Part shown: positions 44,159-63,670 of the stretch, piece after piece | Position numbering within the stretch: the stretch's first letter is position 1 | Layout of the letters: each line of letters begins with the position of its first letter | Assembly: GCA_965541585.1 (NCBI GenBank) | Contig: CBEUCH010000007.1 | Location: 113,055 to 177,054, forward strand | DNA length: 64,000 nt | Origin: an uncultured bacterium | GTDB taxonomy: Bacteria; Zixibacteria; MSB-5A5; UBA10806 | Reading direction: 5' to 3' | Position numbers and translations under genes: made by a program | Notes under the pieces: generated by a model | What the model was told of the DNA's origin: nothing | What the model saw: the letters and a program-made list of their open reading frames with translations, nothing else | Databases searched by the model: none

Positions 44159-44210
44159 GTAGGGTCTCTGAAACAGATTGCCTGATCAAATTCAGGGAGG
44201 ATTAATAAAG

Positions 44211-46040: not shown

Positions 46041-46062
46041 GAAAGTGGAGGTTAGAGAAAAA

Positions 46063-47079: not shown

Positions 47080-47108
47080 TCAACGCCAAATTTTAAGGAG
47101 GAATTGAA

Positions 47109-48824
47109 GTGAATTCCCTTAAGAAATTTATTTCGGAGGTGGCGGCTTTGTTGGCGTTGGCGCTCCTTCTGGCGGCCGGTTGCGCGGATACGCCGAAGGA
47201 TCCCGATACCAATAACGAGCCCAACACCTCCATAACGAGCTACATCATCGATACAGCCCCCGATTCGGCTACATTCTACAATGTAACCGTCAACTGGCGA
47301 TGGTCTGATAAGGATGGGGAGGCGGTGGCCTTTCGATACTGGGTCGATACCGGCGATACTACGGAAACGTATGATACTAACGCAATCGTCAGGCTCGACT
47401 TCCCCAACAGTACGACAACCTACACATTCTACGTCCAGGCCAAGGACAATTCGAACGACTGGGATGCCACGGCAGCTTCGAGGGTCATAGACATCACCGA
47501 GACCAGGGATATTACCGATCCCGCATTTATGCCGAGTACGGCAGGGATCACGGTTCCCCCGAACGGAGCTTCGACCTCCCGGGGAGTACCGTTTGCGATC
47601 AGCGGCACCGATGTTGACGGCATAGTAACCGATTTCCAGTGGGCGGTTGATGATCCGACTTCATGGACAACCGTTACTCCGGATATAGTCGATGTCAGCT
47701 CATCGGCAGGCGTTATCACGCTCGGTCCGGCTACTCTGACTCTGGGGACGCATATCGTTTACTTCCGGTCCTTGGACAACATGGCCAACGTTGATCCCTC
47801 ACCGCTTTCAATCTCGATCAACGTTGAGGCCGGATACGCGCCTGAAGTTGTTCTTTCAGTTGCCGACGGCCAGTCATTCATAGTGCCTTATACTGCGCCG
47901 ACCTTGGAAGATTTCACGGTTACCGTTACTGCAACCGTTGATTTTTACTATGGCCAGATCGATAGTTTTGTGGTCTCGACCAGCGAAGGCGCTTCCTTCA
48001 CCTCGACCGAGACGGAGATAGTCCTCGGAGATCTGGGTTCCGGCGATTACTGGGTGGATATAACCGCCTGGGACGCCGGCGAGAATTCAACCGCTACAGG
48101 CCAGGTCAGTTTTTCAATCCTTGAGCTGGCTGCGGACAATGGTGTTCTCTGCGTAAACGGTATCGACTGGGGAACCTATGGCAGTGACGCTGATGACATC
48201 TGGGAATCAGGTGTTCCCTGGGGCAACAGAACGAATTTCAAGACCTGGGATCTTTTTGATACATCTCCCCTCTACAGCGACCCAGATTTCGGCGACAACC
48301 TGCTGGGTAAGGGTGGCGGTGTACCTGCATGGATGCTGGATACCGATTTCTTCGAGGCCATTAGCTGGTTCGGCAACAACTTTTCCGGCGACCAGGCGCA
48401 CTGGTCAGCTCTCGAAGATGAGATTATCGCCTACCTCGAAATGGGCGGTAACATTCTGTTACCGGTCAGGTATGGGTCCACCTGGTTCTGGGACGAGTTG
48501 AATACGTACTGCGGTGTTGATCCTGACGCCTGGAATGAATCTCCGGCCGCCGATATTCTTACGGCCAAAGTTGGCACACTGGCTGATATAAATGCAGAGA
48601 CCGGTCAGAGCCTCTGGCATATTCCCATGACTAGTGGCAACCTCTGGATATACGAGGCAGCTACGGCGGCGCCCGGCATGCATGCCGGATTTATTACGTT
48701 GCCTAATGGCGATGGCGGTGGCGGTGCTTTCTGCTACATCGCCGGCAGAAGTTATCGCTGGGAAACCGCTGACATGAAGGCAGCCGTCGATGTTATCCTT
48801 AATACCTATTTCGGGGTTCAATAA
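47109..48824 (+). CDS. Acidic lipoprotein with Ig-like repeats; hypothetical
   Basis: GTG after AAGGAGG; lipobox LAAG-C; repeated W...D.DG....F.(Y/W).VD and (F/Y).V.(A/S).DN....D.(T/S)P segments; C-terminal YLEMGGNILL alpha/beta domain. Confidence 0.75.
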   Translation: MNSLKKFISEVAALLALALLLAAGCADTPKDPDTNNEPNTSITSYIIDTAPDSATFYNVTVNWRWSDKDGEAVAFRYWVDTGDTTETYDTNAIVRLDFPNSTTTYTFYVQAKDNSNDWDATAASRVIDITETRDITDPAFMPSTAGITVPPNGASTSRGVPFAISGTDVDGIVTDFQWAVDDPTSWTTVTPDIVDVSSSAGVITLGPATLTLGTHIVYFRSLDNMANVDPSPLSISINVEAGYAPEVVLSVADGQSFIVPYTAPTLEDFTVTVTATVDFYYGQIDSFVVSTSEGASFTSTETEIVLGDLGSGDYWVDITAWDAGENSTATGQVSFSILELAADNGVLCVNGIDWGTYGSDADDIWESGVPWGNRTNFKTWDLFDTSPLYSDPDFGDNLLGKGGGVPAWMLDTDFFEAISWFGNNFSGDQAHWSALEDEIIAYLEMGGNILLPVRYGSTWFWDELNTYCGVDPDAWNESPAADILTAKVGTLADINAETGQSLWHIPMTSGNLWIYEAATAAPGMHAGFITLPNGDGGGGAFCYIAGRSYRWETADMKAAVDVILNTYFGVQ

Positions 48825-48852
48825 ACCATCAACCGGAGAAAGGAGATAAAAA

Positions 48853-50337
48853 ATGAAGAAAGTATTGTCATTACTCGCCACCGGTTTGATGGTTAGCGCT
48901 CTCATAATCGGTTGCGGAACAGAGGATCCATGGAGCCCCGATCCTACCCGCTCCCTTAATCTTTCCATGGTCTCAGGGCCGGCTGATACGGTGGGTTATA
49001 GTTCGGACGTTTCATTTTCCTGGACCTCCACCGGAGGCGAAGGCGAGGTTCAATACCAATACCGACTGGACCAGGGAAGCTGGTCGACTGCGTCCAATGC
49101 CACCAGCCAGGCCTTTGAGGACGTAACCACCGGCTTTACGCTCGGTGTCAGGGCTACGGACGCCGATGGGAATACAGATGAGGATTCCCGCCAGTTCTGG
49201 GTTGGAGATCAACCAGCGGACGACACAACGCCGCCTACAGCAGAGATAACGTCCTCACCGGCTGAGGGCAGCTTTGTCGCCAGCGGCAGTACCATATCTT
49301 TCACCTGGGATGGCAGCGACGATGCCGATGGTAGTAACGTTCTATTCTGGTATTCATTTGCCGGATCCACATCGGATACATCAGCAACTCGAACCGTAAC
49401 ATTTGTAAACGTTTCAGCTGATCCTGCGGCCGCATTTTCCGTGTGGGCGCTTGACCAGAGTGGAAATGCCTCTACGGCGGCCGCGGTTTCCTTTGTCATC
49501 AAAGACGCCACGATTCTCTATATCGATGACTACCAGTGGTTTGATCTTGGTGGCAATGTGGATATGCCCACGGAGCGCGATCAGAAGCAGTTCTACCGTG
49601 ATATCCTCGAGGGATACGCGTTTGCGGAGTGGGATGTTGCCGAACAAGGTATGCCGGATGCTGCTGCGCTTGCTCCGTTCACAACTATTCTCTTTGCATC
49701 CGATGGCGATGGAGATGATGGCACCTGGTGGTATGAAGTAGGTGCTTTGGGCGGAGGCCCGTTGCGCACTTACCTGGAGACTGACGACAGCCGTCATCTT
49801 ATAGCGATTTGCTCTGAAATCCTTCCATGGATTTGGAGCACAAGCATACCTCCGGCGCCCGGCGATTTTGAATACGACTGGTTTGGCATCGATAGTCAAA
49901 ATGCAGAGGCAATTGACACCACCTATTGGCTGGAAGACTTGGATTACTCCTATGCCATATCGGGATATGACTCACTTACCGTTGATACCGTTAGTTTTTG
50001 CTGGGATTATTGGGATGATTTTACATGGGCTGTTAATACCGGTAACTTTTCCGGGTTGCCTGACTCGATGAAGATTGATGTTGCCAAGAACGGCGATCAG
50101 AACGGTATAGCGTCCAATACGATAAGCCTGCGTGCCGGAACAGTTGTTTTGTTTACATGGGGATTGAATGTTGATGGCGTCAGACCATATGCTTATACGT
50201 ATGCAGATCCTATCGCTCATCTATACTATGTAGGCGGTCAGGCGCGCACCGCTATGATCAACTTCGATGGTTATTCGATGCCACTGCCTAGCATGCGGCA
50301 AACGGTTGGAGCAATTCTTACGGAGTTCGGTGAATAG
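48853..50337 (+). CDS. Acidic lipoprotein with Ig-like repeats and a C-terminal alpha/beta domain; hypothetical
   Basis: AAGGAG SD; lipobox IIG-C; VSFSW..YQYRLD..WS, VRATDADGN, DTTPPTAEITS, VWALDQSGN; ILYIDDY..FY..IL....WDV...G.P domain. Confidence 0.75.
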   Translation: MKKVLSLLATGLMVSALIIGCGTEDPWSPDPTRSLNLSMVSGPADTVGYSSDVSFSWTSTGGEGEVQYQYRLDQGSWSTASNATSQAFEDVTTGFTLGVRATDADGNTDEDSRQFWVGDQPADDTTPPTAEITSSPAEGSFVASGSTISFTWDGSDDADGSNVLFWYSFAGSTSDTSATRTVTFVNVSADPAAAFSVWALDQSGNASTAAAVSFVIKDATILYIDDYQWFDLGGNVDMPTERDQKQFYRDILEGYAFAEWDVAEQGMPDAAALAPFTTILFASDGDGDDGTWWYEVGALGGGPLRTYLETDDSRHLIAICSEILPWIWSTSIPPAPGDFEYDWFGIDSQNAEAIDTTYWLEDLDYSYAISGYDSLTVDTVSFCWDYWDDFTWAVNTGNFSGLPDSMKIDVAKNGDQNGIASNTISLRAGTVVLFTWGLNVDGVRPYAYTYADPIAHLYYVGGQARTAMINFDGYSMPLPSMRQTVGAILTEFGE

Positions 50338-50357
50338 GACAAGTTGATCTACGATCG

Positions 50358-50399
50358 AAGAGCCCGCCCCGACTTAAGATCGGGGTGGGCTTTCTTTTT
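50358..50399 (+). terminator. Intrinsic terminator after the TBDR operon
   Basis: AGCCCGCCCCGA-cttaaga-TCGGGGTGGGCT followed by TTCTTTTT. Confidence 0.8.
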
Positions 50400-50410
50400 G
50401 ATGGTGATTT

Positions 50411-51883
50411 ATGACTAAAACCAGGATGCTTTTTTTAATCGCTACGGTCATGTTAACGGCTAAGGTATCGGCATCGCAGGACATAGCCGGGCAAATCGAC
50501 AGCCTGGTCGCGGATACGACGCTCGATGACGCCCATATCGGTCTGGCCATATATGATATTACAGCGGACAGCATGGTCTACAATCTCAATGCCGAAAAAC
50601 TCTTTTCCCCCGCTTCCAATATGAAGCTTTTCACCAGCGCCGCCACACTGGGGCTGCTCAGCCCCGAATACCGTTTTAAAACCGTCTTTTTCAGAACCGG
50701 CAAAATCGATAAAAAGGGCCGGCTCAAGGGAGATCTGGTGATCGTAGGCGGCGGCGATCCGCTTATTTCAGGGAGGTTCAGAGACAGCGTTACAGAGGTG
50801 CTGGAGTTGTGGGCGGACAGCCTTAAGTCTATGGGAATCAAAGAGATCAAAGGAGATATCGTTACAGATAATTCTTTTTTTTCAGGATCGGAACTCGGCT
50901 CGGGATGGTCCTGGGATGATCTGACATACTGGTATGCCTGTCCCATTTCAGCGCTGTCTTTCAACGATAACTGCGTTGATTTGAAGTTTCTCCCGGGAGA
51001 GAGAGTCGGGGATCCCGCGATTATCGAAATCGACCCGCCCACCGATTATATCACCATCACCAATAATGCCGTTACACTGCCTGCCGATTCGGAATTTACG
51101 CTTGATTATTACAGGAGACCGTATACGAACGATGTCACTTTTTTCGGAGGTATTTCTCTCAGCGATACAGCCGGTGAAATTGACTATGTCTCGGTGCACC
51201 GCCCGGAGATCTACACTACTTATGTATTTGCCAGTGTCATAAAAGAAAAAGGTATTAAATTCAAAGGAGATATTGTTTCTCTCGATGATTTGGAGGATGA
51301 TGAAAGGCCCGTATATGTCTCGGGAAAGCTGGCTCCGCTTTTCGAGTGGCGGTCGGATTCCCTAGGCCTGGTGATATCGGTAATTAATAAGAACAGCCAG
51401 AACTTTTTTGCCGAACAGAGCCTCAAAACCATCGGCAGAGAACTTGGCGGCGAGGGTAGTTTCTCCAGGGGTATCGAATTAGCAGAAGCGTTTTTCGATT
51501 CGATAGGGATTACAGGAGATGATATTTCCATGCACGACGGCTCCGGCTTGTCCTATATAAATATTGTAAAGCCTTCCGCCGTTATTGAGCTTTTAAAGAG
51601 TATGTGTCATAGCCCGTTTTTTCAGACGTATTACGAATCGCTGGCTATTCCGGGGGAGGACCGGTCGGTCAGAACCCGGCTCAAGGAAGTTGAGAATAGA
51701 GAACATGTGAGGGCGAAGACAGGCTATATCGCCAACACCAGCAGCTTTTCCGGGTATATAGATGGGCCGCACGCGGGTCATTTGCTTGCATTTTCGATTA
51801 TGGTTAACAATTATAGTTGTAAAACATCCTACGTGACGGGCTGGCATGATTCAGTGGTTTCGCTTCTACTTCTGGAATACTGA
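50411..51883 (+). CDS. dacB: D-alanyl-D-alanine carboxypeptidase/endopeptidase (PBP4, S13)
   Basis: Signal peptide; PASNMKL (SxxK), GGGDP, NSQNFFAE (SxN), DGSGLS, AKTGYI (KTG). Confidence 0.93.
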   Translation: MTKTRMLFLIATVMLTAKVSASQDIAGQIDSLVADTTLDDAHIGLAIYDITADSMVYNLNAEKLFSPASNMKLFTSAATLGLLSPEYRFKTVFFRTGKIDKKGRLKGDLVIVGGGDPLISGRFRDSVTEVLELWADSLKSMGIKEIKGDIVTDNSFFSGSELGSGWSWDDLTYWYACPISALSFNDNCVDLKFLPGERVGDPAIIEIDPPTDYITITNNAVTLPADSEFTLDYYRRPYTNDVTFFGGISLSDTAGEIDYVSVHRPEIYTTYVFASVIKEKGIKFKGDIVSLDDLEDDERPVYVSGKLAPLFEWRSDSLGLVISVINKNSQNFFAEQSLKTIGRELGGEGSFSRGIELAEAFFDSIGITGDDISMHDGSGLSYINIVKPSAVIELLKSMCHSPFFQTYYESLAIPGEDRSVRTRLKEVENREHVRAKTGYIANTSSFSGYIDGPHAGHLLAFSIMVNNYSCKTSYVTGWHDSVVSLLLLEY

Positions 51884-53163
51884 TGGATTACTTTCATTAT
51901 AAAAGAGGTCATTTATACTGCGAGGACGTCCGGGTTTCGGATATAGTAAAGAAATATTCGACGCCGCTCTATATCTACAGCCTGAAAACCCTTGTCAGAC
52001 ATTTCAAGGTTACATCACAGGTCTTTGGCAGCATTCCTCATATAATCTGCTACGCCGCCAAGGCCAATTCCAATCTGGCAATCTTGAAGGTGGCGGCCCT
52101 GTGCGGCGCGGGCGCCGATGTGGTCTCCGGCGGCGAGCTTCTAATGGCCCTGAAAGCAGGGATTAAGAACGACCGCATAGTCTTTTCGGGCGTGGGCAAG
52201 ACCGATGAGGAGCTTGAACTGGCTGTAAAATCCAAAATCCTGTTTATCTGCGCCGAATCTCTTGATGAAATCGAGACGATTGCCAAAATTGCACGCCGGA
52301 ACAGGATTGTGGCTCCGGTGGCCGTCAGGGTGAATCCCGATATCGATCCCAGGACACATCCTCATATCGCCACCGGGCTCAGACAGACGAAGTTCGGAAT
52401 AAGCGAAAATAGCGCCAAAAAGGCCTACAGGATCTGCCGCGATGAAAAATGGCTTAATGCCGTAGGGATATCGATGCATATCGGTTCCCAGGTTGAGTCG
52501 GTTAAGCCCTATGTCGATTCCGCCTATAAGATAGTGAGTCTTTATAAATATTTATTGAAACAAAGTATTAATCTAAAGTATATAGATATTGGTGGAGGAT
52601 GGGCGGCTCAATTTGAGCGGGACAGTATTTTGCCCCATCCCGACGATTATGTTTCGGCTATTTCGGATCTCTTTACCAATCTTCCGGTGACCGTCGTTGC
52701 CGAACCGGGAAGATCGTTAATCGGCAATGCCGGGGTACTCATTATGAAAGTCATACGCGTGAAAAGAAGTTCATCGATGAATTTCTGTATTGTCGATGCG
52801 GGAATAAATGATTTCATTCGTCCTGTTCTGTATGGGGCGAATCATAGAATTGAGCCGGTATATCATAGACCTGGCAGGAAAGTCGTATACGATATCGTTG
52901 GGCCCGTATGCGAAAACAGTGATTTTCTGGCAAAATCCGTAAGCCTTCCCGAAGTGGAGAAAGGCGATATTCTGGCGCTCTTTACGGCGGGAGCTTATGG
53001 CAGGGTCATGAGTTCGAATTACAACGGACGTCTACGGGCGGCTGAAGTGGCCGTGGCCGGCAGCAATGTTTTCTCAATCAGAGAAAGAGACGATTTTCGG
53101 GATCTTGTCAGAGGGCAGCGAGGAGTTAATATCAGCAAAAAAATAGTGGATGATTTGCTCTGA
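51883..53163 (+). CDS. lysA: Diaminopimelate decarboxylase
   Basis: TPLYIYS, YAAKANSN (PLP Lys), DVVSGGEL, FSGVGKT, RVNPD..THP.I.TG...KFG, HIGSQ, DIGGG, EPGRS, GPVCENSD, GAYG..MSSNYN.R. Confidence 0.93.
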   Translation: MDYFHYKRGHLYCEDVRVSDIVKKYSTPLYIYSLKTLVRHFKVTSQVFGSIPHIICYAAKANSNLAILKVAALCGAGADVVSGGELLMALKAGIKNDRIVFSGVGKTDEELELAVKSKILFICAESLDEIETIAKIARRNRIVAPVAVRVNPDIDPRTHPHIATGLRQTKFGISENSAKKAYRICRDEKWLNAVGISMHIGSQVESVKPYVDSAYKIVSLYKYLLKQSINLKYIDIGGGWAAQFERDSILPHPDDYVSAISDLFTNLPVTVVAEPGRSLIGNAGVLIMKVIRVKRSSSMNFCIVDAGINDFIRPVLYGANHRIEPVYHRPGRKVVYDIVGPVCENSDFLAKSVSLPEVEKGDILALFTAGAYGRVMSSNYNGRLRAAEVAVAGSNVFSIRERDDFRDLVRGQRGVNISKKIVDDLL

Positions 53164-54290
53164 TGAACGATACTGCCAGGCCTTCGAGGGTTGAAATCGA
53201 TCTTGGGTCTCTGAGGCACAACGTTCGGAAGATCAAATCCTGGATCGGGGATAAGACTAAGCTCATGGCGGTTGTCAAAGCCGATGCTTACGGGCATGGA
53301 GCGGTGAAGGTTTCCCATGTCGTATCAGAGGAAGGGGTCGACTTTCTTGGCGTGGCGATGCTGGAGGAGGCCGATGAAATCCGCCAATCCGGGATCGATA
53401 TTCCTTTAGTAATCTTATATCCCGAAACTACAGAAAGGAGCGCTGAAGCGGTCAGCCGTGGGTATTGTATTACAATATCCGATATGAGCGATTATCATGA
53501 AATCAGGCAGGCATTGTGCAACCATGATATGCCAATTAGATATTTTCTGAACGTCAATACCGGGATGAACCGTTATGGTATGGATTACGATACATCCGCC
53601 GCAGGAGATTTGATCGGTCTATCAAATCCGGCCTCTTTTATGATGGGTTTTACCACGAATCTGGCAGACCCGGCCCGAAACAACCCGGCTCTGGCGGATA
53701 AGCAGGTGGAGAATTTCATTAAAATCATGCACGCTGCCCGGCGTTTTTCGCAAGATGGCTTTCTCTATTCTTATGAGTCGTCCGGTTCGCTCTACAGGCA
53801 AAGGGCGGCGGATGGGTCTCTGGTAAGAGTCGGGCTCCTGATATACGGTCTGGCACCGGGCGAGGAAGATGCAGGAGAATTAAAGCCGGTAATGTCAGTG
53901 AAGAGTCGGATCTCGGAGATACGCGATCTCCAGGAGGGGGATGGCGTGGGCTATGGATTTTCCTATATAGCAGCCAGGAAATCGAGAATAGCTGTGATCC
54001 CGATGGGATATGCAGATGGGTATCCCTGGAGCCTTTCAAATAAAGGCGCCGTTATCATCAGGGACTCTGAAGCACCCGTAGTTGGCCGGGTCTGTATGGA
54101 CGCCTTTATGGTGGATGTAACAGATATTACGGGGTGTGCGGTTGGCGATGATGTAGTGATACTGGGATCAATGGCGGGGACCGAAATCAACGCTGATAGA
54201 TTGGGCGAATGGGCTGGCTCATTCTCTTATGAAATCCTATCAGGCTGGGGCAAAAGACTGCCGAGGATTTACCATGATAGTCAGGATTAA
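53163..54290 (+). CDS. alr: Alanine racemase family protein (divergent barrel motifs)
   Basis: MAVVKADAYGHG (PLP Lys), TGMNRYG, VRVG..IYG, GVGYG (catalytic Tyr), GYADG, VVGRVCMD, YEIL....RLPR. Confidence 0.8.
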   Translation: MNDTARPSRVEIDLGSLRHNVRKIKSWIGDKTKLMAVVKADAYGHGAVKVSHVVSEEGVDFLGVAMLEEADEIRQSGIDIPLVILYPETTERSAEAVSRGYCITISDMSDYHEIRQALCNHDMPIRYFLNVNTGMNRYGMDYDTSAAGDLIGLSNPASFMMGFTTNLADPARNNPALADKQVENFIKIMHAARRFSQDGFLYSYESSGSLYRQRAADGSLVRVGLLIYGLAPGEEDAGELKPVMSVKSRISEIRDLQEGDGVGYGFSYIAARKSRIAVIPMGYADGYPWSLSNKGAVIIRDSEAPVVGRVCMDAFMVDVTDITGCAVGDDVVILGSMAGTEINADRLGEWAGSFSYEILSGWGKRLPRIYHDSQD

Positions 54291-55056
54291 TATTAACGTC
54301 GCCGATATCAGGCTGGAGCCGCAGTATCATACCGAGAGGACCAGTCAAGCTTTGTTCAATGAACTGGTGGACGTTCTGGAGGCGAAAGAAGGGTATTGCC
54401 GGGTCAGGACATGGGATCAATACGAGGGTTGGATTGCGGAGCAATTTCTGACTGAGCATGATAATTTTGATGGCCAGGGGCCTTTTGCTATCGTGCGCAA
54501 TCTTGCATCTGCCTTCGAAAAGCCAGATCCTGCCTCCAGAAAGCTGACATCAATTCCCTATGGCTGTCAGCTTTTCGGAGCTATTACGGGTGAGTTTTTT
54601 AAAATCTACTCCGAAAGATATGGCGATATCTATATCAAACGATCAGACCTGTCGGCACCCGGTGATATCAATATAAAATATGATTCGAAATCCAACGAAC
54701 TTGTAATGGAGGCGGAGAAATTCCCGGGCGCTCCATACCTTTGGGGCGGGCGGTCTTTTTTCGGGATCGATTGTTCGGGATTCGCACAGACGATAATGAG
54801 GAGATTCGGAATTTCACTTCCCCGGGATACGAAAGATCAGATCAATTGCGGCGAAGACGTTAAACGCGAAGATATTAAATCGGGGGATTTGCTTTTCTTC
54901 TCACGTCATGTGACGATTGCCTTATCGGATACACAAATGATACATTCCAGTCTGTCAAACGGAGGGGTCGCGTACAACAGCTTCGATCCTCAAAGCCCTG
55001 TTTACAGCAAATATCTCGATGAGTCTTTCATCACCGCCCGGAGAGTTCTGGCATGA
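54274..55056 (+). CDS. SH3-NlpC/P60 gamma-D-glutamyl endopeptidase (YkfC-like), no signal peptide
   Basis: ADIRLEP..SQALFNE..YEGWI; PYLWGGRS.FGIDCSGF; LPRD; GDLLFF..HV; IHS (Cys-His-His). Start ATG 54274. Confidence 0.88.
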   Translation: MIVRININVADIRLEPQYHTERTSQALFNELVDVLEAKEGYCRVRTWDQYEGWIAEQFLTEHDNFDGQGPFAIVRNLASAFEKPDPASRKLTSIPYGCQLFGAITGEFFKIYSERYGDIYIKRSDLSAPGDINIKYDSKSNELVMEAEKFPGAPYLWGGRSFFGIDCSGFAQTIMRRFGISLPRDTKDQINCGEDVKREDIKSGDLLFFSRHVTIALSDTQMIHSSLSNGGVAYNSFDPQSPVYSKYLDESFITARRVLA

Positions 55057-55949
55057 GGATGTCGGCGAGGATTGCAGGTTGTTTCTTAATGCTCGTGGCC
55101 GTGATTGCCGGGCCGAATGAGCTTTTACCCCAGGAATCAAAGGGGGAATCCTCGGGGAAAATACCGATATACGCCAGAGTCAATATCAACATTGCCGATG
55201 TTCGGGCTGAGCCGAAGAGGCGCTCCGAGCGCGTGAGCCAGGTCCTTTTCAACGAGCTTGTGGAAATAATTGATAAAGAGGAACAATATTGCAGGATAAA
55301 GCAGCAAGATGGGTACGAGGGCTGGATCAGAAAGCAGTTTCTCGCCTCGCATGATAGGTTTACCGGCGACGGCCCCTTTATAGTCGTGAAGAATCTTGCG
55401 CCGGCATTTATAGAGCCCGATCTGTCATCGAGAAGGATCACGTCGATTCCTTATGGTTGTTTCCTTTACGGCCGAGAAGTAGACCGGTTTCTGAAGATAA
55501 CATCTGATAGATACGGAGAGTTTTTCATTAGCTCTGACGACTATATGGATATAGAGACGCTTTCTAAGGCTACAGAGCCGGATTCAGCCGGTATTGTTTT
55601 CGAGGGGGAGAAATTCCTCGGTGCGCCGTACCTCTGGGGCGGGCGTTCGTTTTTCGGGATCGATTGTTCGGGTTTTGTTCAGACCATCATGAATAGATTC
55701 AATATAGCCCTGCCGCGGGATTCCAAAGATCAGATTCGCGCCGGTGTTGAGATAAGGCGGGAGGACATCAGGGCCGGCGATCTTCTGTTTTTCCCCCGGC
55801 ATGTAACACTGGCTTTATCCAAAGACCTGATGATTCACTCGACCCCGTCCAACGGGGGAGTGGCATATAACAGCCTTAATCCCCGAAGCCTGATCTATAG
55901 CAAATATCACGATGAATCATTTATAACGGCGCGGAGGGTTTCGGAGTGA
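55053..55949 (+). CDS. SH3-NlpC/P60 gamma-D-glutamyl endopeptidase (YkfC-like) with an N-terminal signal-like extension
   Basis: Same motifs as the upstream paralog, plus MRMSARIAGCFLMLVAVIAG. Confidence 0.88.
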   Translation: MRMSARIAGCFLMLVAVIAGPNELLPQESKGESSGKIPIYARVNINIADVRAEPKRRSERVSQVLFNELVEIIDKEEQYCRIKQQDGYEGWIRKQFLASHDRFTGDGPFIVVKNLAPAFIEPDLSSRRITSIPYGCFLYGREVDRFLKITSDRYGEFFISSDDYMDIETLSKATEPDSAGIVFEGEKFLGAPYLWGGRSFFGIDCSGFVQTIMNRFNIALPRDSKDQIRAGVEIRREDIRAGDLLFFPRHVTLALSKDLMIHSTPSNGGVAYNSLNPRSLIYSKYHDESFITARRVSE

Positions 55950-57082
55950 AGACGCTTTTGAAAATTGCACTCCTGTTTGTTGTTCTCATTGCATCGATGT
56001 CATTACTTTTGATGACAAAAGGAGTAACCTCTTCAGGCAGAAGTTTTCATAAAGTCTTTTTTATCGAAACAGCGGACGATTGGCAGAAATGCAATCTTGT
56101 TAACGGCGCGGTTGATACCGAAAAGCAGTCGGTTATCTTCGATGGAAAAGCGGAAGCGGGATCATTAGAATCATTTCAAATCGATCCGGGATTCCCATTC
56201 ACCACCTTGATGTTTTCCTGGAATGCGGAGAGACTGCCGGCGTCCTCCCTTTTGAATTTCGAGGTGGAGGTCTCGACTGATGGAGATAAATGGCACCGAT
56301 TTCAATATTTAACTTACGGTATTCTCGATACGCTGGAATTAGCGGACATCATAGAATCGCCAATCAGGATTGACGGAATAGGTTATGTCGATACGGATAT
56401 TTTAAAGCTCGAAAAGCCGATGAGATTTGCCAGGGCATTAGTGCGGGCGACTGGAATGGGAGAATCAGAGGATATCAGCCTGCGAAGAATGTCTTTTTGT
56501 TTCGCCACGAATGATATTAGCTGGAAAGAATATAGAAAATTAAAAGATGAACATTCAAATGTAGAAATTGGCAAAGTGAAGTTGGCAGTCCCATATTATA
56601 CTCAGCGAGGCATGCCGCCGGGATTGTCAGGCAACTGCTGCTCGCCTACGTCGGTGACGATGGTCTTGAATTATCATGATAAGAACGTGGAACTGATTCC
56701 TTTCTGCCATGAAGTATTTGACCCGTATAATGAGATGTACGGCAACTGGGCCTATAATGTTCAGGCGGCCTATCTCATGGGTTTGCGAAAAACGTGGGTC
56801 GAGATTCACTCGGGTTTCGATGAGATTTACGAGGAAGTATCAAGTGGCAAGCCTGTCGTCATAAGTATCGCCTACGGTTATGATGAACTTCCAAACTCTC
56901 CGATTCATGAGGCCGAAGTCGGACATCTCATCACTGTGGTTGGTTTCGATGGAACGGATACTGTCATATGTAATGATCCCGCAGGACATAATATCGAGGA
57001 CGGTATAATCCGCTACCCGCGAAAGGAACTGGAGGCGGTCTGGATTGGCCACGGAGGGATTGCATATCACCTATGGCCTTGA
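55946..57082 (+). CDS. Exported or membrane-anchored peptidase C39-like protein
   Basis: N-terminal hydrophobic helix; VPYYTQ..CCSPTSVTMVL; YGNW..N; GHLITVVGF; CNDPA (Gln/Cys/His/Asp). Confidence 0.8.
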   Translation: MKTLLKIALLFVVLIASMSLLLMTKGVTSSGRSFHKVFFIETADDWQKCNLVNGAVDTEKQSVIFDGKAEAGSLESFQIDPGFPFTTLMFSWNAERLPASSLLNFEVEVSTDGDKWHRFQYLTYGILDTLELADIIESPIRIDGIGYVDTDILKLEKPMRFARALVRATGMGESEDISLRRMSFCFATNDISWKEYRKLKDEHSNVEIGKVKLAVPYYTQRGMPPGLSGNCCSPTSVTMVLNYHDKNVELIPFCHEVFDPYNEMYGNWAYNVQAAYLMGLRKTWVEIHSGFDEIYEEVSSGKPVVISIAYGYDELPNSPIHEAEVGHLITVVGFDGTDTVICNDPAGHNIEDGIIRYPRKELEAVWIGHGGIAYHLWP

Positions 57083-58014
57083 TAGTCAAGCCGTCGAGAA
57101 TCGCCCCCGGATCGACTATCGGGATCATAGCGCCGGCCGGGCCTCCGGATCGTGAGCGTTTGAAAAAAGGTATCCGGTTCTTAAAAAGCCGGGGATATCG
57201 AGTAAAAACATACCCTCAGGCGCGAAAGAAACTCGGCTATCTGGCAGGAGATGACAGATCCCGGGCGGAGGCGCTGAACGCAGCATTTGCGGATGGCGAT
57301 ATCTCGGCAATCTTCTGCGCACGCGGCGGTTTCGGCAGTCTGCGCATCCTTCAACATGTCAATTTTGATATCATAAGAGCCAATCCGAAGATATTCGTCG
57401 GCTATTCCGATATCACGGTTTTGCTTCTGGCTATCTATAAGAGAACGAGGCTGGCGACATTTCATGGCCCTATGCCGGCGGTTGAATTCGGCAGGCGGTT
57501 GAAGCGGTTTAGCATTGAGAATTTCTTTAATGCTATAGAGTCAAACCGGCCTCCTGGCTCCATTGAGAAACCAGCTGGATATAATATAGGTCGTATGAGC
57601 GGCGGTGTTGTAGAAGGCAGGATAATCGGTGGGAATCTATCGTTAATGACAAAACTAATCGGCACCGGGTTTCTTCCGAGCTTCAGGAACAAAATCGTGT
57701 TTTTCGAGGATACCGAGGAGGAAGCTTATAGAATTGATGGTTATCTTTCACAGCTATTCGCAGCCACAGATTTCGGCCAGGCAAAAGGGTATATAATCGG
57801 CGAATTTACTCGCACCGAGCCGAGATCAGGCTACTTATCGGGGTGGAGCGTCAAGCAGGTTATCAAAGATTATTTTTCCAAAATGGATCGGCCCTGCATA
57901 TACGGTTTTCCTTGCGGCCATGGGGCCGAAAAGATTACTATACCGATTGGCGTAAAAACGGTTCTCGATGCCGATAAGAAGAGTGTATCGTTCAAAGAGG
58001 CAGGTGTGAGCTGA
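57073..58014 (+). CDS. ldcA: Muramoyltetrapeptide LD-carboxypeptidase (S66)
   Basis: IGIIAPA, YLAGDD..RA, CARGGFG, GYSDIT (Ser), HGPM, GGNL, FFEDTEE (Glu), CGHG (His). Confidence 0.88.
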   Translation: MALIVKPSRIAPGSTIGIIAPAGPPDRERLKKGIRFLKSRGYRVKTYPQARKKLGYLAGDDRSRAEALNAAFADGDISAIFCARGGFGSLRILQHVNFDIIRANPKIFVGYSDITVLLLAIYKRTRLATFHGPMPAVEFGRRLKRFSIENFFNAIESNRPPGSIEKPAGYNIGRMSGGVVEGRIIGGNLSLMTKLIGTGFLPSFRNKIVFFEDTEEEAYRIDGYLSQLFAATDFGQAKGYIIGEFTRTEPRSGYLSGWSVKQVIKDYFSKMDRPCIYGFPCGHGAEKITIPIGVKTVLDADKKSVSFKEAGVS

Positions 58015-59012
58015 TGAGACTATCCATTAAAGAGCATGATATTCATCTGGTTAATACGTTCAGGACAACGCATGGCGCCTCGGATTCCAGGCGGGCGCTG
58101 ATAGTTGACATAGACGGCGGCCTGGGAGAGGCGGCGCCGGTTCACTATTATGGCGAAAACGCTGAAACCGTGAGGGATTTTGTGGGGAGGGCATCGAAGA
58201 TCCTGGGTGATGATCCCTTTCAAATCGAATCTTTAAGTGAGAAATTAGATAGAGTGGCAGCCCTCAATTATAGCGCCAAGGCAGCGATAGATGTAGCATT
58301 GCACGACCTGGTGGGGAAGAGGCTTGGCATACCGATCCACCAGTTTTACGGTATCACCCCCCGTGACGATCTGGCGACCTCGTTTACCATATCGATTTCA
58401 GATCCGGAAACGATGAAGAAACAGACGGAGAAATCCCCGGGCTATCATGTATATAAGGTTAAGGTCGGGGTTCCCGGCGATATCGAGATGGTAGCGGCGG
58501 TCAGGGATGCCACTAAAGCCAGAATCCGGGTTGATGCTAACGAAGGCTGGACCGTTAAAGAGGCGATAGCCAGGGTGAAGGAACTCGAGAAGCTGGATGT
58601 AGAATTTATAGAGCAACCATTGCATCGGGACGACCTCGACGGTTTCAGATTATTGCGATCTAAAATTGATCTGCCAATAATAGCGGACGAGGGAGTTTTT
58701 CGCGCCACTGATATTCCAAGATATATAGGGCTGGTTGACGGAATAAACATCAAGCTTTCCAAGTCGGGCGGCCTGCGCGAGGCTTTCAAGATGATAGCCG
58801 TGGCCCGCGCTCACAGGATGAAGGTAATGATAGGTTGCATGGTGGAGACCTCGGTCGGCATCACGGCGGCGGCACAGATCGCATCGCTAGTGGATTATGC
58901 CGATCTCGACGGCAACATACTAATATCAGACGATCCCTATTCGGGCGTTACACTGGAAAACGGATATATAAGGCTACCGGGCGGCCCCGGCCTGGGTGTA
59001 ACAGCGAAATAA
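58014..59012 (+). CDS. L-Ala-D/L-Glu dipeptide epimerase (enolase superfamily, MLE subgroup)
   Basis: F.T.HG, GLGEAAP..YYGE, KVKVG, RVDANEGW, EQP, IADE, NIKLSK.GG, GCMVET, DLDG. Confidence 0.9.
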   Translation: MRLSIKEHDIHLVNTFRTTHGASDSRRALIVDIDGGLGEAAPVHYYGENAETVRDFVGRASKILGDDPFQIESLSEKLDRVAALNYSAKAAIDVALHDLVGKRLGIPIHQFYGITPRDDLATSFTISISDPETMKKQTEKSPGYHVYKVKVGVPGDIEMVAAVRDATKARIRVDANEGWTVKEAIARVKELEKLDVEFIEQPLHRDDLDGFRLLRSKIDLPIIADEGVFRATDIPRYIGLVDGINIKLSKSGGLREAFKMIAVARAHRMKVMIGCMVETSVGITAAAQIASLVDYADLDGNILISDDPYSGVTLENGYIRLPGGPGLGVTAK

Positions 59013-60811
59013 TGAAATATCTTCTAACCGTATCTTTATTGTTGTTTTCTATTTCGCAGTCCAGGGCTGATGTAATTCCTAATGTAGTTTATCCCGAGGC
59101 CGATCAGCTGCTGCCATCAGTTGATTCGACATTTATTTTTGGAAACGTTACCCCGGAAGCAGAACTCTACATTAACGGTATCGAGATACCTGTGCACAGA
59201 GACGGCGGCTGGCTGGCTTATCTGCCTGTCGATCATGGAGAATTCATATTCTGTCTCATGGCCGTTCTGGACAATGATACGTCTTTTCTGGAGCTGCCGG
59301 TGCAAATCGGCCCTCCCGGATTCGGTGACATTTATACGGTTCCACAATTTCCAATTTCACCTTATCCTGTTGTAGATGTTATTTATTCTGTGGGGGATAT
59401 TTTCGAATTCTCTTTCAAAGCGCCGCCGGGCTGCAGGGGATGGTTTGGAATAAACGATTCCGATTCTGTTTCGATGTTTCCGTCACCGGCATCCGAAGGT
59501 GTATACCGGGGTGATGTATTCGGCGAATCTTCAGTGATTCAACACCAATCGGCGTACATAACATATTCTGGAAGCTACCGCTTGGCTGTTGCTGACACGG
59601 GCGTCTACAGCATTTTCTATGGATGTGAGAAAGCTGGAGATTCCGATTCGGAAGAATCGATGGCCATGCTCATGGTCGCCGATTCGGTCCTGACTGTTCT
59701 ACCAGAGTTTCCGCCGGTGGTCGGGTTGTTTTCGGGAAGATCTCAGATAGTACGAACCGGACCGCACCTGGGATATAAACTTTTATATCAGCCGCCCGGA
59801 GTTAGGGTGCACATAACAGGATCGGAATCGAACTATTATAAGATCGAGCTGGCAGAGGGTATAACAGGATACACGAATACAGATAGCGTAAAACTTTTGC
59901 CGCCGGGTACGGCCATACCGAGAGGGAGAATATCGTTTATTGCGGTGGATAAAATCGATGGAGGAATCGAGATCTCGGCCCATATCGGTCAAAGGCTGCC
60001 ATACGAGATAAGCGAGACCTTATCTCCGCCGGGGATTGATATTGATATATTCGGGGCAACGGGGGATGTGGATTGGATCAGGTATAACGCGCACGAAGAA
60101 TTCTTAAGACTCGTAAAATGGTCGCAGCCGACTGATGGGGTATTCAGAATATCGGCTGAATTTGACGAAGCTGGAATAGCGGGCTATCAACCGTATTACG
60201 ATGGCAACAGGTTTGTTATTAAAATAAAAAAGAAACTCCAATCGATTCCGCTTTTTTCAAGCCCTGTTAAGGGATCAAAAATCGTAATTGATCCCGGCCA
60301 TTCACATGACAGTGGTGCCGTGGGCCCGGCGGGATTGCGGGAGGAAGATGCTAACCTCTGGATTGCCCATGAATTGAGAGTGATGCTGGAACGAAAGGGT
60401 GCCGAGGTTTTGATGACTCGTTACGGCCATGAGGATATCGCTCTCTATGATCGCCCGAAGATGGCTGAGAAATGGGAGGCGGATCTATTGATATCAATTC
60501 ATAATAACGCTCTGCCGGATGGCATAAATCCTTTCAATAATAACGGGGCGTCGGTTTTTTATTATCATCCGCATTCCAAGCCGCTGGCGGAGACTATTCA
60601 TAAATATCTGTTAAAGGAAACCGATCTACCGGATCATGGTCTCTACTATGGCAATCTGGTTTTGACCCGGCCTACCTCGATGCCGGCGGTATTGGTTGAA
60701 TGTGCCTTTATGATGATCCCCGAACAGGAGGCGATGCTGAAAACCGATAAGTTTCAGAGAAAATGCGCCAGGGCTATCTTGAAGGGGATTGAAGAATATC
60801 TGCGCAGGTGA
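59012..60811 (+). CDS. Secreted N-acetylmuramoyl-L-alanine amidase (Amidase_3)
   Basis: TAATG coupling at 59010-59014; signal peptide; IVIDPGHS..GAVG..E...NL, ISIHNNA, PAVLVEC.F zinc motifs. Confidence 0.9.
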   Translation: MKYLLTVSLLLFSISQSRADVIPNVVYPEADQLLPSVDSTFIFGNVTPEAELYINGIEIPVHRDGGWLAYLPVDHGEFIFCLMAVLDNDTSFLELPVQIGPPGFGDIYTVPQFPISPYPVVDVIYSVGDIFEFSFKAPPGCRGWFGINDSDSVSMFPSPASEGVYRGDVFGESSVIQHQSAYITYSGSYRLAVADTGVYSIFYGCEKAGDSDSEESMAMLMVADSVLTVLPEFPPVVGLFSGRSQIVRTGPHLGYKLLYQPPGVRVHITGSESNYYKIELAEGITGYTNTDSVKLLPPGTAIPRGRISFIAVDKIDGGIEISAHIGQRLPYEISETLSPPGIDIDIFGATGDVDWIRYNAHEEFLRLVKWSQPTDGVFRISAEFDEAGIAGYQPYYDGNRFVIKIKKKLQSIPLFSSPVKGSKIVIDPGHSHDSGAVGPAGLREEDANLWIAHELRVMLERKGAEVLMTRYGHEDIALYDRPKMAEKWEADLLISIHNNALPDGINPFNNNGASVFYYHPHSKPLAETIHKYLLKETDLPDHGLYYGNLVLTRPTSMPAVLVECAFMMIPEQEAMLKTDKFQRKCARAILKGIEEYLRR

Positions 60812-60814
60812 TGA

Positions 60815-61624
60815 TCACTGTTTTATGGCTCCCGCCGTTATCCCCTCTGTAATCCGTCTCTGAAATATCAAAAAGAATATTATGACCGGTAAGGCTGCGA
60901 TTGTCGAACCCGCCATTGTAACAGGCCAGTCGCTGGATCGGGGGTCCTGCATCAGTGCCAGGCCCACGGGAAGCGTATACATCTCATTGGAAATGGTCAA
61001 TATCTTGGGAAAGAGGAAAGAATTCCAGGTGGTTAGGAATATCTGAACGGCCAGCACCGCCAGGGCCGGCTTGCATAGCGGCAAGACGACTTTAAAGAAA
61101 ATCATTAGCTCCCCTGCGCCATCTACCCTGGCGGCGTCCTCCAGGTCGGTCGGCAAGCCGTCTATATACTGCTTCATGAGAAATACGCCTAATGGCGATA
61201 CCAACCAGGGCATTATCAGCGCCAGGTAGGTGTCGAACCATCCGAATTTCAGCATCATCTGGAAAATTGGCAGAATCAGAACGTGCACCGGAATCATCAA
61301 CATTGCAACCGCCGTCATGAATATAGGCCATGTGATCCTTCCGGCGCCCCTGGAAAGGCCGTAGCCGACCATGGCGCAGAGAAGTAAATTCCCAAACGTG
61401 ACGGATATAGCCACGATGCTGGAATTCAAAAAATACCTGCCGAAGTTGTTAGTCTTGAAGACGGTTGCATAGTTTTTAAAAGTGAAACCGATTTCCTTCA
61501 AGCTAACGGAAAATGTCCCGGGATCTTGAATCGATAATAGCATCATATACAGCATGGGAAAGATCATTACGAGCAGTATTGCTATTAGAAGACCTGTAAT
61601 TAACCATCTGGGAGCCCGGCGCAT
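60815..61624 (-). CDS. Carbohydrate ABC transporter permease (MalG-type)
   Basis: RYFLNS, EAA loop LPTDLEDAARVDGA, WNSFLFP, YTLPVGL, GITAGAIK. Confidence 0.92.
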   Translation of the reverse strand: MRRAPRWLITGLLIAILLVMIFPMLYMMLLSIQDPGTFSVSLKEIGFTFKNYATVFKTNNFGRYFLNSSIVAISVTFGNLLLCAMVGYGLSRGAGRITWPIFMTAVAMLMIPVHVLILPIFQMMLKFGWFDTYLALIMPWLVSPLGVFLMKQYIDGLPTDLEDAARVDGAGELMIFFKVVLPLCKPALAVLAVQIFLTTWNSFLFPKILTISNEMYTLPVGLALMQDPRSSDWPVTMAGSTIAALPVIIFFLIFQRRITEGITAGAIKQ

Positions 61625-62490
61625 CACGTGGTTCTCCTGATGTTGGTTAGCCTGAACTGGATCAGCGAAAATACAAGTATGATAAGGAATAACAGATATG
61701 CAGCGGCCGAGGCATAGCCGATATCACCGCGGCTAATTCCCTTATCGAATATAAAGAAGACCGCGGTTAGCGTGGAGTTGAAGGGTCTGCCGGAAGTCAT
61801 AACGAATATCTCGACGAATATCTGGAATGACCTGATTGTATTTAAAACAATTACAAAGGCGAATGTCGATTTCAAAAGGGGAATCGTGATCTCTAAACTT
61901 CTTCTAAAAAAACCTGCACCATCGACCCGCGCCGCTTCGTAGAGTTCGACCGGGATCGATTTTATACCGGCTAAGAAAATAAGCACGTAATATCCGATTG
62001 CGACCCAGACATCCATCGCCATGATGGAGAGAAGAGCTGTTTTTTCAGATTGTAAAAATCCGTTCGCCGGTGGAGAGATGCCGGCCAGCTTGCAGAGCGA
62101 AAAAATATATCCTCCGCGCGAATATAGATTGTAAAATATTAGAGCTACGACCACCATGGCGGTGATGGAGGGTATGAAATATGCCGCCTGAAATATCCGG
62201 TGGCCGGGTATTTTTTCAGCTATTAAGAGTGCCAGTAATAACGCAACGAACGTGGTTATGGGTATGGTTCCGAATACGAAAAAGAAGGTGTTTTTCAAGG
62301 CCTTCACGAAAACAGGATCGGTGATTAACCGGGTATAATTCGAAAAACCTATGAACTGGCCGGTTCCTCTCAGAAGCTGGAAATCGGTGAGGGAGAGGTA
62401 GAATGAGTAACCTATGGGGTAAAGCCAGAAGACCAAAAGATATATTATCCAGGGAAGGATAAACAATAGTATTTTATTCCTGGATCGCAT
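61624..62490 (-). CDS. Carbohydrate ABC transporter permease (MalF-type)
   Basis: FIGFSNY, ALKNT, LAGIKSIPVELYEAARVDGA, ITIPLLK, FQIF, GYASA. Confidence 0.92.
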   Translation of the reverse strand: MRSRNKILLFILPWIIYLLVFWLYPIGYSFYLSLTDFQLLRGTGQFIGFSNYTRLITDPVFVKALKNTFFFVFGTIPITTFVALLLALLIAEKIPGHRIFQAAYFIPSITAMVVVALIFYNLYSRGGYIFSLCKLAGISPPANGFLQSEKTALLSIMAMDVWVAIGYYVLIFLAGIKSIPVELYEAARVDGAGFFRRSLEITIPLLKSTFAFVIVLNTIRSFQIFVEIFVMTSGRPFNSTLTAVFFIFDKGISRGDIGYASAAAYLLFLIILVFSLIQFRLTNIRRTT

Positions 62491-63670
62491 GATCCGCCGA
62501 TTTAAGTTTTGCATCTATTGTTCTTGATGCCTTCTGCAGAATTTCCTCCGCTGTCCCGTGGCCATACATGGCCGCCTCTATAGCGTCCTCGATGTCCTGT
62601 TCAATATCCACCCATAACGGAGTTGGGGGAGCGGATTTCGAATTCTGCAGCTGCTGTGCCTGTATCATTTTTTCGGGATCGGAGATCTCCAGATCGGGAT
62701 ATGGAGGAAATCCAAAGCCGGCAGCGTCACATAAACGCTGGCAGTTTTTCCTGGCCGTTATAAATTCGGCCAGTTTCCTGGCGTTTTCAATATTCCTCGA
62801 CCGCGAATGGACGGCAATATACTCGCCTCCGAAGAAGGAACTCCCCGTTCCCCCATCCTCTTTGAAAAAGGAGAGGAGCTGATATTGGAAATCGGGGGGA
62901 TTTAGTCTCAAACGTCTTAAAAGCCATCCGCCGGATATGACAAATCCGATCCTGCCCTCCCGGAAATACTCCTCGAGCCTTCTCTGGCTTTCGATGACTC
63001 CGCAGTTGCAAAGATCAAGATAGAAATCCAAGGCCTGTATGGCATTTTTCGAATCCAGCTCCGATCTCAGGCCGTCCTCGCTCAGGACGCGCCCTCCATT
63101 GCTCCATAAAAAAGGCAGATACTTCTTATACAGGCGGTGCTTCTCTGCGGAGTTGCAACCGAAACCGAAATAATCGTCGCCAATTTCGTTTATTATAGTA
63201 CAGGCCGTAAGCAATTCCTCCCAATCCTCAGGAATATCCATGTTTATCTTTCTCAAGAGGTCGAGATTGAAATAGATCAGCCTGGAATCCAGAAGCCAGG
63301 GGAGCGCGTAGAGCTTTCCCCGCCAGCGTGCCGGGTAAAGATAATTTTCCGCAAGATCCGATTCGAATTCTGCCAGCAGACCGTTATAAGCAAACTCCGC
63401 AATCCAATCCGAGCCCAATTCCATGACATCGGGTGGATAGTCGGCGGCAAACGATATAACCAGTTTATCATGACCGTTGGCCCAGGTTAAATCGGTAATC
63501 TTTACCTTGATATCAGGGTATTCTGTCTCGAACTCCCTGATGATCTGCTCAACAGCGGGTTTCGTATTAGCGTCCGACCAGAACTGCCAGAAACGGATGA
63601 CATTTTTATCCTCCCTTTGTGCAGAGCAGGCTAGAAGAACAGTTGCCATGACCAGACAGATCTTATGCAT
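62474..63670 (-). CDS. Carbohydrate ABC transporter substrate-binding lipoprotein
   Basis: Lipobox LLA-C; IRFWQFW, FE..YPDIKV, PPDVMELG, GKLYALPW..D.R..YFN, SFFGGE. Confidence 0.9.
   Translation of the reverse strand: MHKICLVMATVLLACSAQREDKNVIRFWQFWSDANTKPAVEQIIREFETEYPDIKVKITDLTWANGHDKLVISFAADYPPDVMELGSDWIAEFAYNGLLAEFESDLAENYLYPARWRGKLYALPWLLDSRLIYFNLDLLRKINMDIPEDWEELLTACTIINEIGDDYFGFGCNSAEKHRLYKKYLPFLWSNGGRVLSEDGLRSELDSKNAIQALDFYLDLCNCGVIESQRRLEEYFREGRIGFVISGGWLLRRLRLNPPDFQYQLLSFFKEDGGTGSSFFGGEYIAVHSRSRNIENARKLAEFITARKNCQRLCDAAGFGFPPYPDLEISDPEKMIQAQQLQNSKSAPPTPLWVDIEQDIEDAIEAAMYGHGTAEEILQKASRTIDAKLKSADHAIQE

Follow-up and report, generated by a model that had tools for sequence, protein, structure and literature searches.

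A cluster of nine genes was found at positions 50411-60811, on the forward strand, of a 64,000-nucleotide stretch of a Zixibacteria genome (this whole stretch is called the window). The cluster carries lysA, the gene for meso-diaminopimelate decarboxylase, among genes predicted to degrade peptidoglycan. With a probability of roughly 0.6, it is an operon that breaks stem peptides down to free amino acids, in which LysA turns meso-diaminopimelate (meso-DAP) from the walls of other bacteria into lysine. LysA works in one direction only. It is read here as a salvage enzyme because no known diaminopimelate (DAP) route was found in the genome; hence the meso-DAP in the cell would come from outside, whether the cell's own wall is made with scavenged DAP or with a substitute. 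Since the predicted activities of the operon include those that release meso-DAP from stem peptides, salvage is the simplest reading. Comparisons were made within a set of 61 genomes (the source genome, G000, and 60 relatives) and a wider Zixibacteria set (n = 239).

Diaminopimelate supply, LysA and Alr

The source genome (3.52 Mb, 98.17% complete) gave no match to the dihydrodipicolinate synthase (DHDPS) family, DapB or Ddh. Aspartokinase was not found, the two amino-acid-kinase matches being UMP kinase and carbamate kinase by inspection. Asd, ThrB, ThrC and DapA were unmatched by Escherichia coli queries (phmmer, tblastn), the DapD match was marginal only, and LysX, LysZ and LysY of the LysW route had no match. 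Control genomes behaved as expected in these pathway searches. We know of no DAP route that does not start at aspartate semialdehyde via DapA and DapB. The gap is lineage-wide and is therefore not an assembly artefact. A DHDPS-family match was found in 2 of the 61 genomes, and DapA passed its cut-off in 5 of the 239; DapB was located beside dapA in one of these 239, and four further DapB matches over the cut-off were weak. LysA passed its cut-off in 23 of the 239 genomes, none of them among the five DapA carriers, while 216 had no LysA match. In G023, which is 9% contaminated, LysA was accompanied by a partial DHDPS-family match under the cut-off. The single genome of the 239 with adjacent dapB and dapA matches (G104:C6:168171-169651) gave no LysA match, and its pair was probably acquired.

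The lysA gene is the sole copy in the genome. The best PDB matches of the protein were all DAP decarboxylases (2p3e, E 5e-113), and the alignment covered its full length. The alr gene is also single, and the second lysA or alr which the original prediction had proposed to look for was not found in this genome. Both genes are thus sole copies, accompanied neither by a full DAP pathway nor by a loss of the linkage described below. The salvage direction proposed for lysA is supported by the missing pathway together with that linkage.

DapF was the dap gene product found in the source genome. It was present in 55 of the 61 genomes and in none of the five of family f4. The catalytic pair of 31 aligned sequences was Cys/Cys in 11, Cys/Ser in 9, Ser/Cys in 2 and Ser/Ser in 9; Asn64, Asn190, Glu208 and Arg209 were invariant in all of them. 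The Cys/Cys form was found in 10 of 10 sequences from the three families with cluster-linked LysA versus 1 of 21 from other families, and the Ser-bearing forms may have another activity. A LysN-like aminotransferase gene, dapF and argS are consecutive in the source genome (G000:C1:314136-317920), and dapF has this aminotransferase gene as a neighbour in 20 of 31 loci. Its closest relatives are multi-substrate and 2-aminoadipate transaminases. MurE carries the DNPR motif in the source genome and in 46 of 46 sequences read (47 loci were fetched from 60 genomes with a match). This motif marks a DAP-adding MurE (PMC3829189; 10.1101/2022.01.05.475093), but it is not the sole determinant of specificity (PMC3829189), and lanthionine is not separable from DAP here.

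The original prediction had also assigned alr a catabolic direction, and this special role was not borne out. Alr is the only alanine racemase, and D-alanine aminotransferase (Dat) was not found in the genome, the only class IV aminotransferase being IlvE. The genome also has Ddl, MurF and the dcw cluster, and Alr is therefore needed for the D-Ala of wall synthesis. It is a housekeeping, reversible enzyme that must supply wall D-Ala, not a specially catabolic one. The best PDB match was alanine racemase 1 (4y2w, E 1.7e-61), and the score against the DadX model was 158 bits (cut-off 600). The catalytic Lys and Tyr are present. A conserved active-site His, which we take to be part of the canonical Arg-His-Tyr network, is replaced by Asn, and the same substitution appears in 11 of the 12 most frequent column strings listed for the relatives. 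At the C-terminal Tyr position, presumably a specificity site, Trp was found in three relatives. A role of Alr as a DapF2-type DAP epimerase was judged unlikely, because D-Ala has no other source in this genome and DapF is encoded separately. Two apparent peculiarities of relatives were discarded. The LysA-Alr fusion of G012 (an 822-aa frame) is not real and was produced by a stretch of unknown bases across the junction, and the TGA inside lysA of G024 is an ordinary terminal stop, not selenocysteine.

Conservation and origin of the cluster

An epimerase match was obtained in 52 of the 60 relatives, and 43 of those regions were read. The amidase gene was located directly 3' of the epimerase gene in 42 of them, and the 43rd stops at a contig edge. 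In the same regions, alr belonged to the cluster in 31 cases, was separated by a contig break in 2, was about 7 kb away in 1 and was elsewhere in 9. The order dacB-lysA-alr-nlp-C39-ldcA-epimerase-amidase was found on one contig in ten relatives of the two nearest families (G002, G003, G004, G006, G010, G014, G015, G017, G021 and G023), with frameshifts in the clusters of G004 and G010 and dacB of G015 cut at the contig end. Two genomes of a third family keep this order without dacB and nlp. Among the 22 genomes of the 61-genome set that carry lysA, 21 have it next to dacB and/or alr. The survey of synteny suggested with the original prediction therefore showed a conserved linkage. As the gene order and the epimerase-amidase pairing recur in relatives, the cluster is not a product of chance.

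In most families the core, that is a YkfC-type peptidase, an LdcA-like protein, the epimerase, the amidase and usually alr, occurs without lysA. It appears to be an old cluster of the phylum resembling Bacillus ykfABC, to which dacB and lysA were apparently added once in one lineage. The LysA tree comprised 18 genome-derived proteins and P0063-P0120; P0001-P0062 were omitted as near-duplicates of family f1. In this tree the cluster-linked LysA formed one clade with metagenomic relatives (support 0.966), and two proteins of family f11 branched outside it. The named close homologues of LysA, as of the C39-like peptidase, were from Zixibacteria. A LysA scan of genome contigs returned two close relatives and two distant matches. 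One protein labelled Aminicenantes (P0076) was nested in the clade of Zixibacteria family f2, by either transfer or mis-binning. In the single-contig genome G008, the halves of lysA lie 1.45 Mb apart (C1:738129 and C1:2193534), which indicates either rearrangement or misassembly.

Enzymes of the operon and the proposed pathway

The nine open reading frames follow the order dacB-lysA-alr-nlp1-nlp2-C39-ldcA-epimerase-amidase (Table 1), and their matches agreed with the families named in the original prediction. Overlap at every junction, also claimed there, was confirmed when nlp1 was taken to begin at 54274 and the amidase at 59012, their likely starts. The eight overlaps are 1, 1, 17, 4, 4, 10, 1 and 1 nt, from which we infer co-transcription of the nine genes. 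They have no close paralogues in the genome, with the exception of the nlp pair itself, a small distant NlpC/P60 protein and a second amidase beside murI.

Table 1. Position and identification of the operon genes and the preceding hairpin in the window
Feature	Position	Strand	Identification
Hairpin with T run, GC-rich	50359..50400	+	14 pairs, 9 G-C
dacB, PBP4-type S13 DD-carboxy/endopeptidase	50411..51883	+	Peptidase_S13; TIGR00666 233 bits (cut-off 108)
lysA, meso-diaminopimelate decarboxylase	51883..53163	+	TIGR01048 460 bits (cut-off 298)
alr, alanine racemase	53163..54290	+	TIGR00492 290 bits (cut-off 168)
nlp1, YkfC-type SH3b-NlpC/P60 gamma-D-Glu-diamino acid peptidase	54274..55056	+	best PDB matches 3pvq, 3npf, 3h41
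nlp2, SH3b-NlpC/P60 with hydrophobic leader, predicted exported	55053..55949	+	60% identical to nlp1
C39-like papain-fold cysteine peptidase	55946..57082	+	PF13529 (Peptidase_C39_2)
S66 peptidase, LdcA/YkfA-like LD-carboxypeptidase	57073..58014	+	PF02016 + PF17676; predicted cytoplasmic
Dipeptide epimerase, YkfB/YcjG-like, enolase-superfamily MR_MLE	58014..59012	+	best PDB matches 3iji (E 5e-70), 3jva, 1jpm
N-acetylmuramoyl-L-alanine amidase	59012..60811	+	Amidase_3, residues 424-594; hydrophobic leader, predicted exported

Localisation was predicted from an N-terminal hydropathy window score, not from a signal-peptide predictor. PBP4 (hydropathy 2.46; single copy in the genome), nlp2, C39 and the amidase have a hydrophobic N-terminus and are predicted to be exported. 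LysA, Alr, nlp1 (hydropathy 1.2, without signal peptide), LdcA and the epimerase are predicted to be cytoplasmic.

The nlp1 protein has SH3b and NlpC/P60 domains with the Cys-His-His residues. Alignment to 3npf/3pvq placed Tyr and Asp at the columns of BoYkfC Tyr80 and Asp221, a pair that limits YkfC enzymes to free stem peptides (PMC4600125). The same determinant columns were found in nlp2, its tandem duplicate. Two nlp copies also occur in G002, G007, G010 and G013, and most other relatives have a single copy. By its domains, catalytic residues and specificity pair, nlp1 is identified as a YkfC-type recycling peptidase, for which activity on L-Ala-gamma-D-Glu-mDAP peptides is predicted.

The best PDB match of the S66 peptidase was the muramoyltetrapeptide carboxypeptidase 6uuk (E 4e-39), with MccF proteins almost equally close, and the Ser-Glu-His triad was aligned. 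The closest solved proteins of the epimerase were dipeptide epimerases. Its best match 3iji, labelled only muconate cycloisomerase by the structure search, is taken by us to be the Bacteroides epimerase BT1313. In the amidase, about 420 residues N-terminal to Amidase_3 had no Pfam match.

For the C39-like protein, Gln220, Cys232, His327 and Asn343-Asp344 were conserved across 89 sequences. The model built from this 89-sequence alignment (pLDDT 93; 35 for the single-sequence fold) predicts an N-terminal helix anchor, a beta-rich domain and a papain-like catalytic domain. The closest folds were 3erv (Z 17.9), 6mpz (Z 17.8) and the pseudomurein endoisopeptidase PeiR (Z 16.4) in a search that barely probed the N-terminal domain. 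These neighbours, namely an uncharacterised C39-like peptidase, PCAT peptidase domains and PeiR, do not fix the substrate. An Atlas search gave C39_2 clusters only.

In the pathway proposed here, the exported PBP4, amidase and nlp2, perhaps with C39, would act outside the cytoplasm, opening cross-links and releasing the stem peptide. In the cytoplasm, LdcA, nlp1 and the epimerase would then yield D-Ala, meso-DAP and L-Ala-L-Glu, the dipeptide being split by a peptidase encoded outside the operon. Alr would balance D- and L-Ala besides its biosynthetic task, and the unlinked DapF, with both catalytic Cys, would bring LL-DAP into the meso pool. The freed meso-DAP could feed MurE, and LysA would convert the remainder to lysine. 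This lysine would enter protein or be broken down by the saccharopine enzymes, since an adjacent pair of lysine-ketoglutarate-reductase-like and saccharopine-dehydrogenase genes is present. A homocitrate/isopropylmalate-synthase-like gene, under all cut-offs, is located 3' of a 2-oxoacid:ferredoxin oxidoreductase alpha-beta pair (G000:C1:412592-417676).

The original prediction held that every stem residue is converted to an L-form. The gene families stood, but the conversion is incomplete within the operon, which contains neither a dipeptidase for L-Ala-L-Glu nor a transporter, and C39 has no assigned step. The absence of mpl had been taken as a sign of scavenging. Of the genes named for that check, Mpl was absent, AmpG was unmatched and MurQ was present, and the argument proved weak. 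Mpl passed in 0 of 239 genomes, including the 216 without a LysA match, and the NagZ-like, AnmK and MurQ genes of the source genome are also consistent with own-wall turnover. Such turnover surely passes through the operon enzymes too. The NagZ-like gene, anmK and a SpoIID/LytB-domain gene are consecutive (G000:C3:188135-191530), with murQ at C6:172939. The E. coli-type set for tripeptide re-use (mpl, ampG, ampD) was not found in the source genome. Two AgcS-type amino acid carriers are present, and the one in the window (22146-23480, minus strand) is a candidate for alanine uptake.

The hairpin ends about 10 nt 5' of dacB and is likely the terminator of the upstream TonB-receptor module. A comparable hairpin was found in 11 of 13 intergenic stretches of relatives, the remaining two stretches being 16-21 nt as called; elsewhere in the source genome there were no further full copies and two loose look-alikes. 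The promoter scan before dacB found nothing promoter-like beyond chance level. Given the roughly 10 nt between the conserved hairpin and dacB (window 50337-50411), transcription would run through the hairpin or start from a promoter overlapping it. The upstream module (window 41123-50337) encodes a TonB-dependent receptor, a T9SS-tail protein, a PorV-like protein and two lipoproteins, and is located directly 5' of the cluster in three families; in family f5, a divergent receptor-PorV module precedes a ykf-like core. Convergent with the amidase end is a sugar-type ABC transporter (window 60815-63670, minus strand; binding protein and two permeases), a possible importer of wall sugar. Solved structures gave no informative relative of its binding protein. 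Of the 43 regions of relatives, 24, from many families, have such a transporter close to or at the amidase end, and in G056 it is co-directional.

A more far-reaching scenario can be drawn, which we regard as rather unlikely in its entirety. The organism would be a free-living cell-wall eater whose TonB-receptor/PorV module captures fragments, which are cut by PBP4, the amidase, the second YkfC and C39, the last being a new wall hydrolase. DapF and LysA would turn foreign DAP into lysine and, via the saccharopine enzymes, into fuel. Its own wall would contain scavenged DAP or lanthionine, and most DapF of the phylum, with Cys swapped for Ser, may do other chemistry.

Alternative explanations and known systems

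Several observations weigh against salvage. Cluster-linked LysA forms a single clade, so the conserved linkage counts as one event and not as 21. Four of the ten sister-family genomes lack lysA while retaining Cys/Cys DapF and most of the cluster, in genus g4 dacB-lysA stands apart from alr-to-amidase, and G032, which acquired its lysA separately, shows no cluster-gene match near it. The LdcA-like protein scores under the NF008424 cut-off, and the epimerase under those of NF011708, NF041118 and DgcA. AmpG, OppB/C, DtpA and PepD were unmatched in the source genome, which leaves uptake unexplained. The homocitrate-synthase-like gene and the saccharopine enzymes allow a second lysine source, the aminoadipate route. 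Lastly, a DAP-type MurE throughout a phylum without DapA points to outside DAP, a substitute or an unknown route, and the last of these would undo the argument.

Such an undescribed route might run via the LysN-like aminotransferase encoded 5' of dapF, in which case LysA would simply complete lysine biosynthesis, its gene lying in a mixed cell-wall operon that recycles the cell's own wall. It would account for the uniform MurE motif, the wide occurrence of DapF and the aminotransferase at its side, and new biosynthetic enzymes are still emerging (PMC13759103). We nevertheless hold it to be quite improbable, as the known routes all need DapA and DapB, missing here. In addition, the aminotransferase has its nearest relatives among enzymes that fit lysine breakdown, 20 of the 31 DapF are without one or both catalytic Cys, DapF is missing from f4 and LysA is unmatched in most of the phylum. 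An operon for housekeeping turnover of the own wall, into which lysA was inserted once without functional tie and where it uses free environmental DAP, is also improbable. The single origin of the linkage, the losses of lysA, the core without it in most families, the housekeeping character of the sole alr and sole PBP4, the NagZ-like, AnmK and MurQ genes, and two AgcS-type carriers in a genome where a peptide permease was not found would all agree with that. However, lysA has been retained in frame, with overlapping junctions, in three families at about 50% identity, and it was gained in a lineage with intact DapF that also added PBP4 and C39. Moreover, environmental DAP would itself be mostly wall-derived.

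The own wall could also be built with home-made lanthionine, as in Fusobacterium, which lacks the DAP pathway, has a DapF-like gene and uses lanthionine (PMC11602996; PMC9600241). LysA would then be a sink keeping foreign DAP out of the wall, or would act on turnover lanthionine. Three CysK/CBS-like genes in the source genome, and at least one in 238 of the 239 genomes, are in line with this; such genes are, however, common, and one of the three lies beside a cystathionine gamma-lyase gene, which gives it an ordinary explanation. For one candidate, no Fusobacterium lanthionine synthase was recognisable by name among the best 60 of 72 PDB matches, in which organisms are not given, and LysA aligns over its full length with true DAP decarboxylases. 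These roles for LysA thus seem scarcely probable. A lanthionine wall as such is compatible with the salvage model, and only the role as sink or lanthionine decarboxylase differs.

If salvage is correct, lysA, known from textbooks as a biosynthetic gene, has here been recruited as the final step in the recovery of cell-wall material, and it would be an error in Zixibacteria to annotate a lysine pathway from lysA plus dapF. It would also provide a concrete list of enzymes that could let a widespread, uncultured lineage use the wall debris of bacteria as food. The salvage reading suggests supplying DAP or muropeptides as a cultivation lead, and it sharpens the question of what occupies stem-peptide position 3 in a phylum with DAP-type MurE and without a DAP pathway.

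Among known systems, the core is most easily compared with Bacillus ykfABCD, in which an LD-carboxypeptidase, a gamma-D-Glu-diamino acid peptidase and an L-Ala-D/L-Glu epimerase, predicted to be cytoplasmic, occur together and Mpl is not needed (PMC3305447). The present operon likewise has S66, YkfC-type and epimerase genes together; it works like ykfABC and is not ykfABCD itself. It adds PBP4, Amidase_3, the C39-like peptidase, an exported second YkfC, the sole alr and the sole lysA. In contrast, it contains no ABC peptide-transport subunit of the ykfD/dpp type, and OppB/C was unmatched in the genome. Bacillus subtilis, one of the control genomes, makes its own DAP, whereas no known route was found here. 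A similar likeness exists to the Bacteroides epimerase BT1313 and YkfC BT1314, as Bacteroides-type YkfC entries are closest to nlp1 and the Tyr/Asp pair is kept (PMC4600125). Where that pathway has an AmiA fusion, the operon encodes a zinc Amidase_3 together with an S66 peptidase; its linked lysA and alr are a further difference.

Trypanosomatids obtain lysine from DAP while retaining no more than the final one or two pathway genes, DapF and LysA or LysA only, and so resemble the present case in their truncated pathway (PMC3846528). They differ in being wall-less eukaryotes without a competing MurE, and the available part of the source describes no linked hydrolase operon (PMC3846528). Fidelibacter multiformis IA91 lives on foreign muropeptides and cannot make DAP or lysine (PMC11652737). 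It re-uses muropeptides and is also unable to make MurNAc, D-Ala and D-Glu (PMC11652737). The Zixibacteria genome, on the other hand, has the wall precursor genes (dcw cluster, MurA, GlmS, MurC-F, Ddl, Alr and MurI), has no Mpl or AmpG, and is missing only the diamino acid.

In staphylococci, alr2 (dapF2) presumably sits beside lysA in the dap operon. There too an Alr-like gene is tied to lysine synthesis, but DapF2 epimerises DAP, belongs to a biosynthetic operon and coexists with a second Alr (PMC13759103). By contrast, the Zixibacteria genome has one Alr only, which scores over the alr cut-off, and encodes DapF separately. In a literature search outside of which lay supplementary tables and most subscription papers, no description was found of the operon, of lysA in a ykf-type cluster, or of Zixibacteria, peptidoglycan and lysine together. 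The individual enzymes and the ykfABC core are already known.

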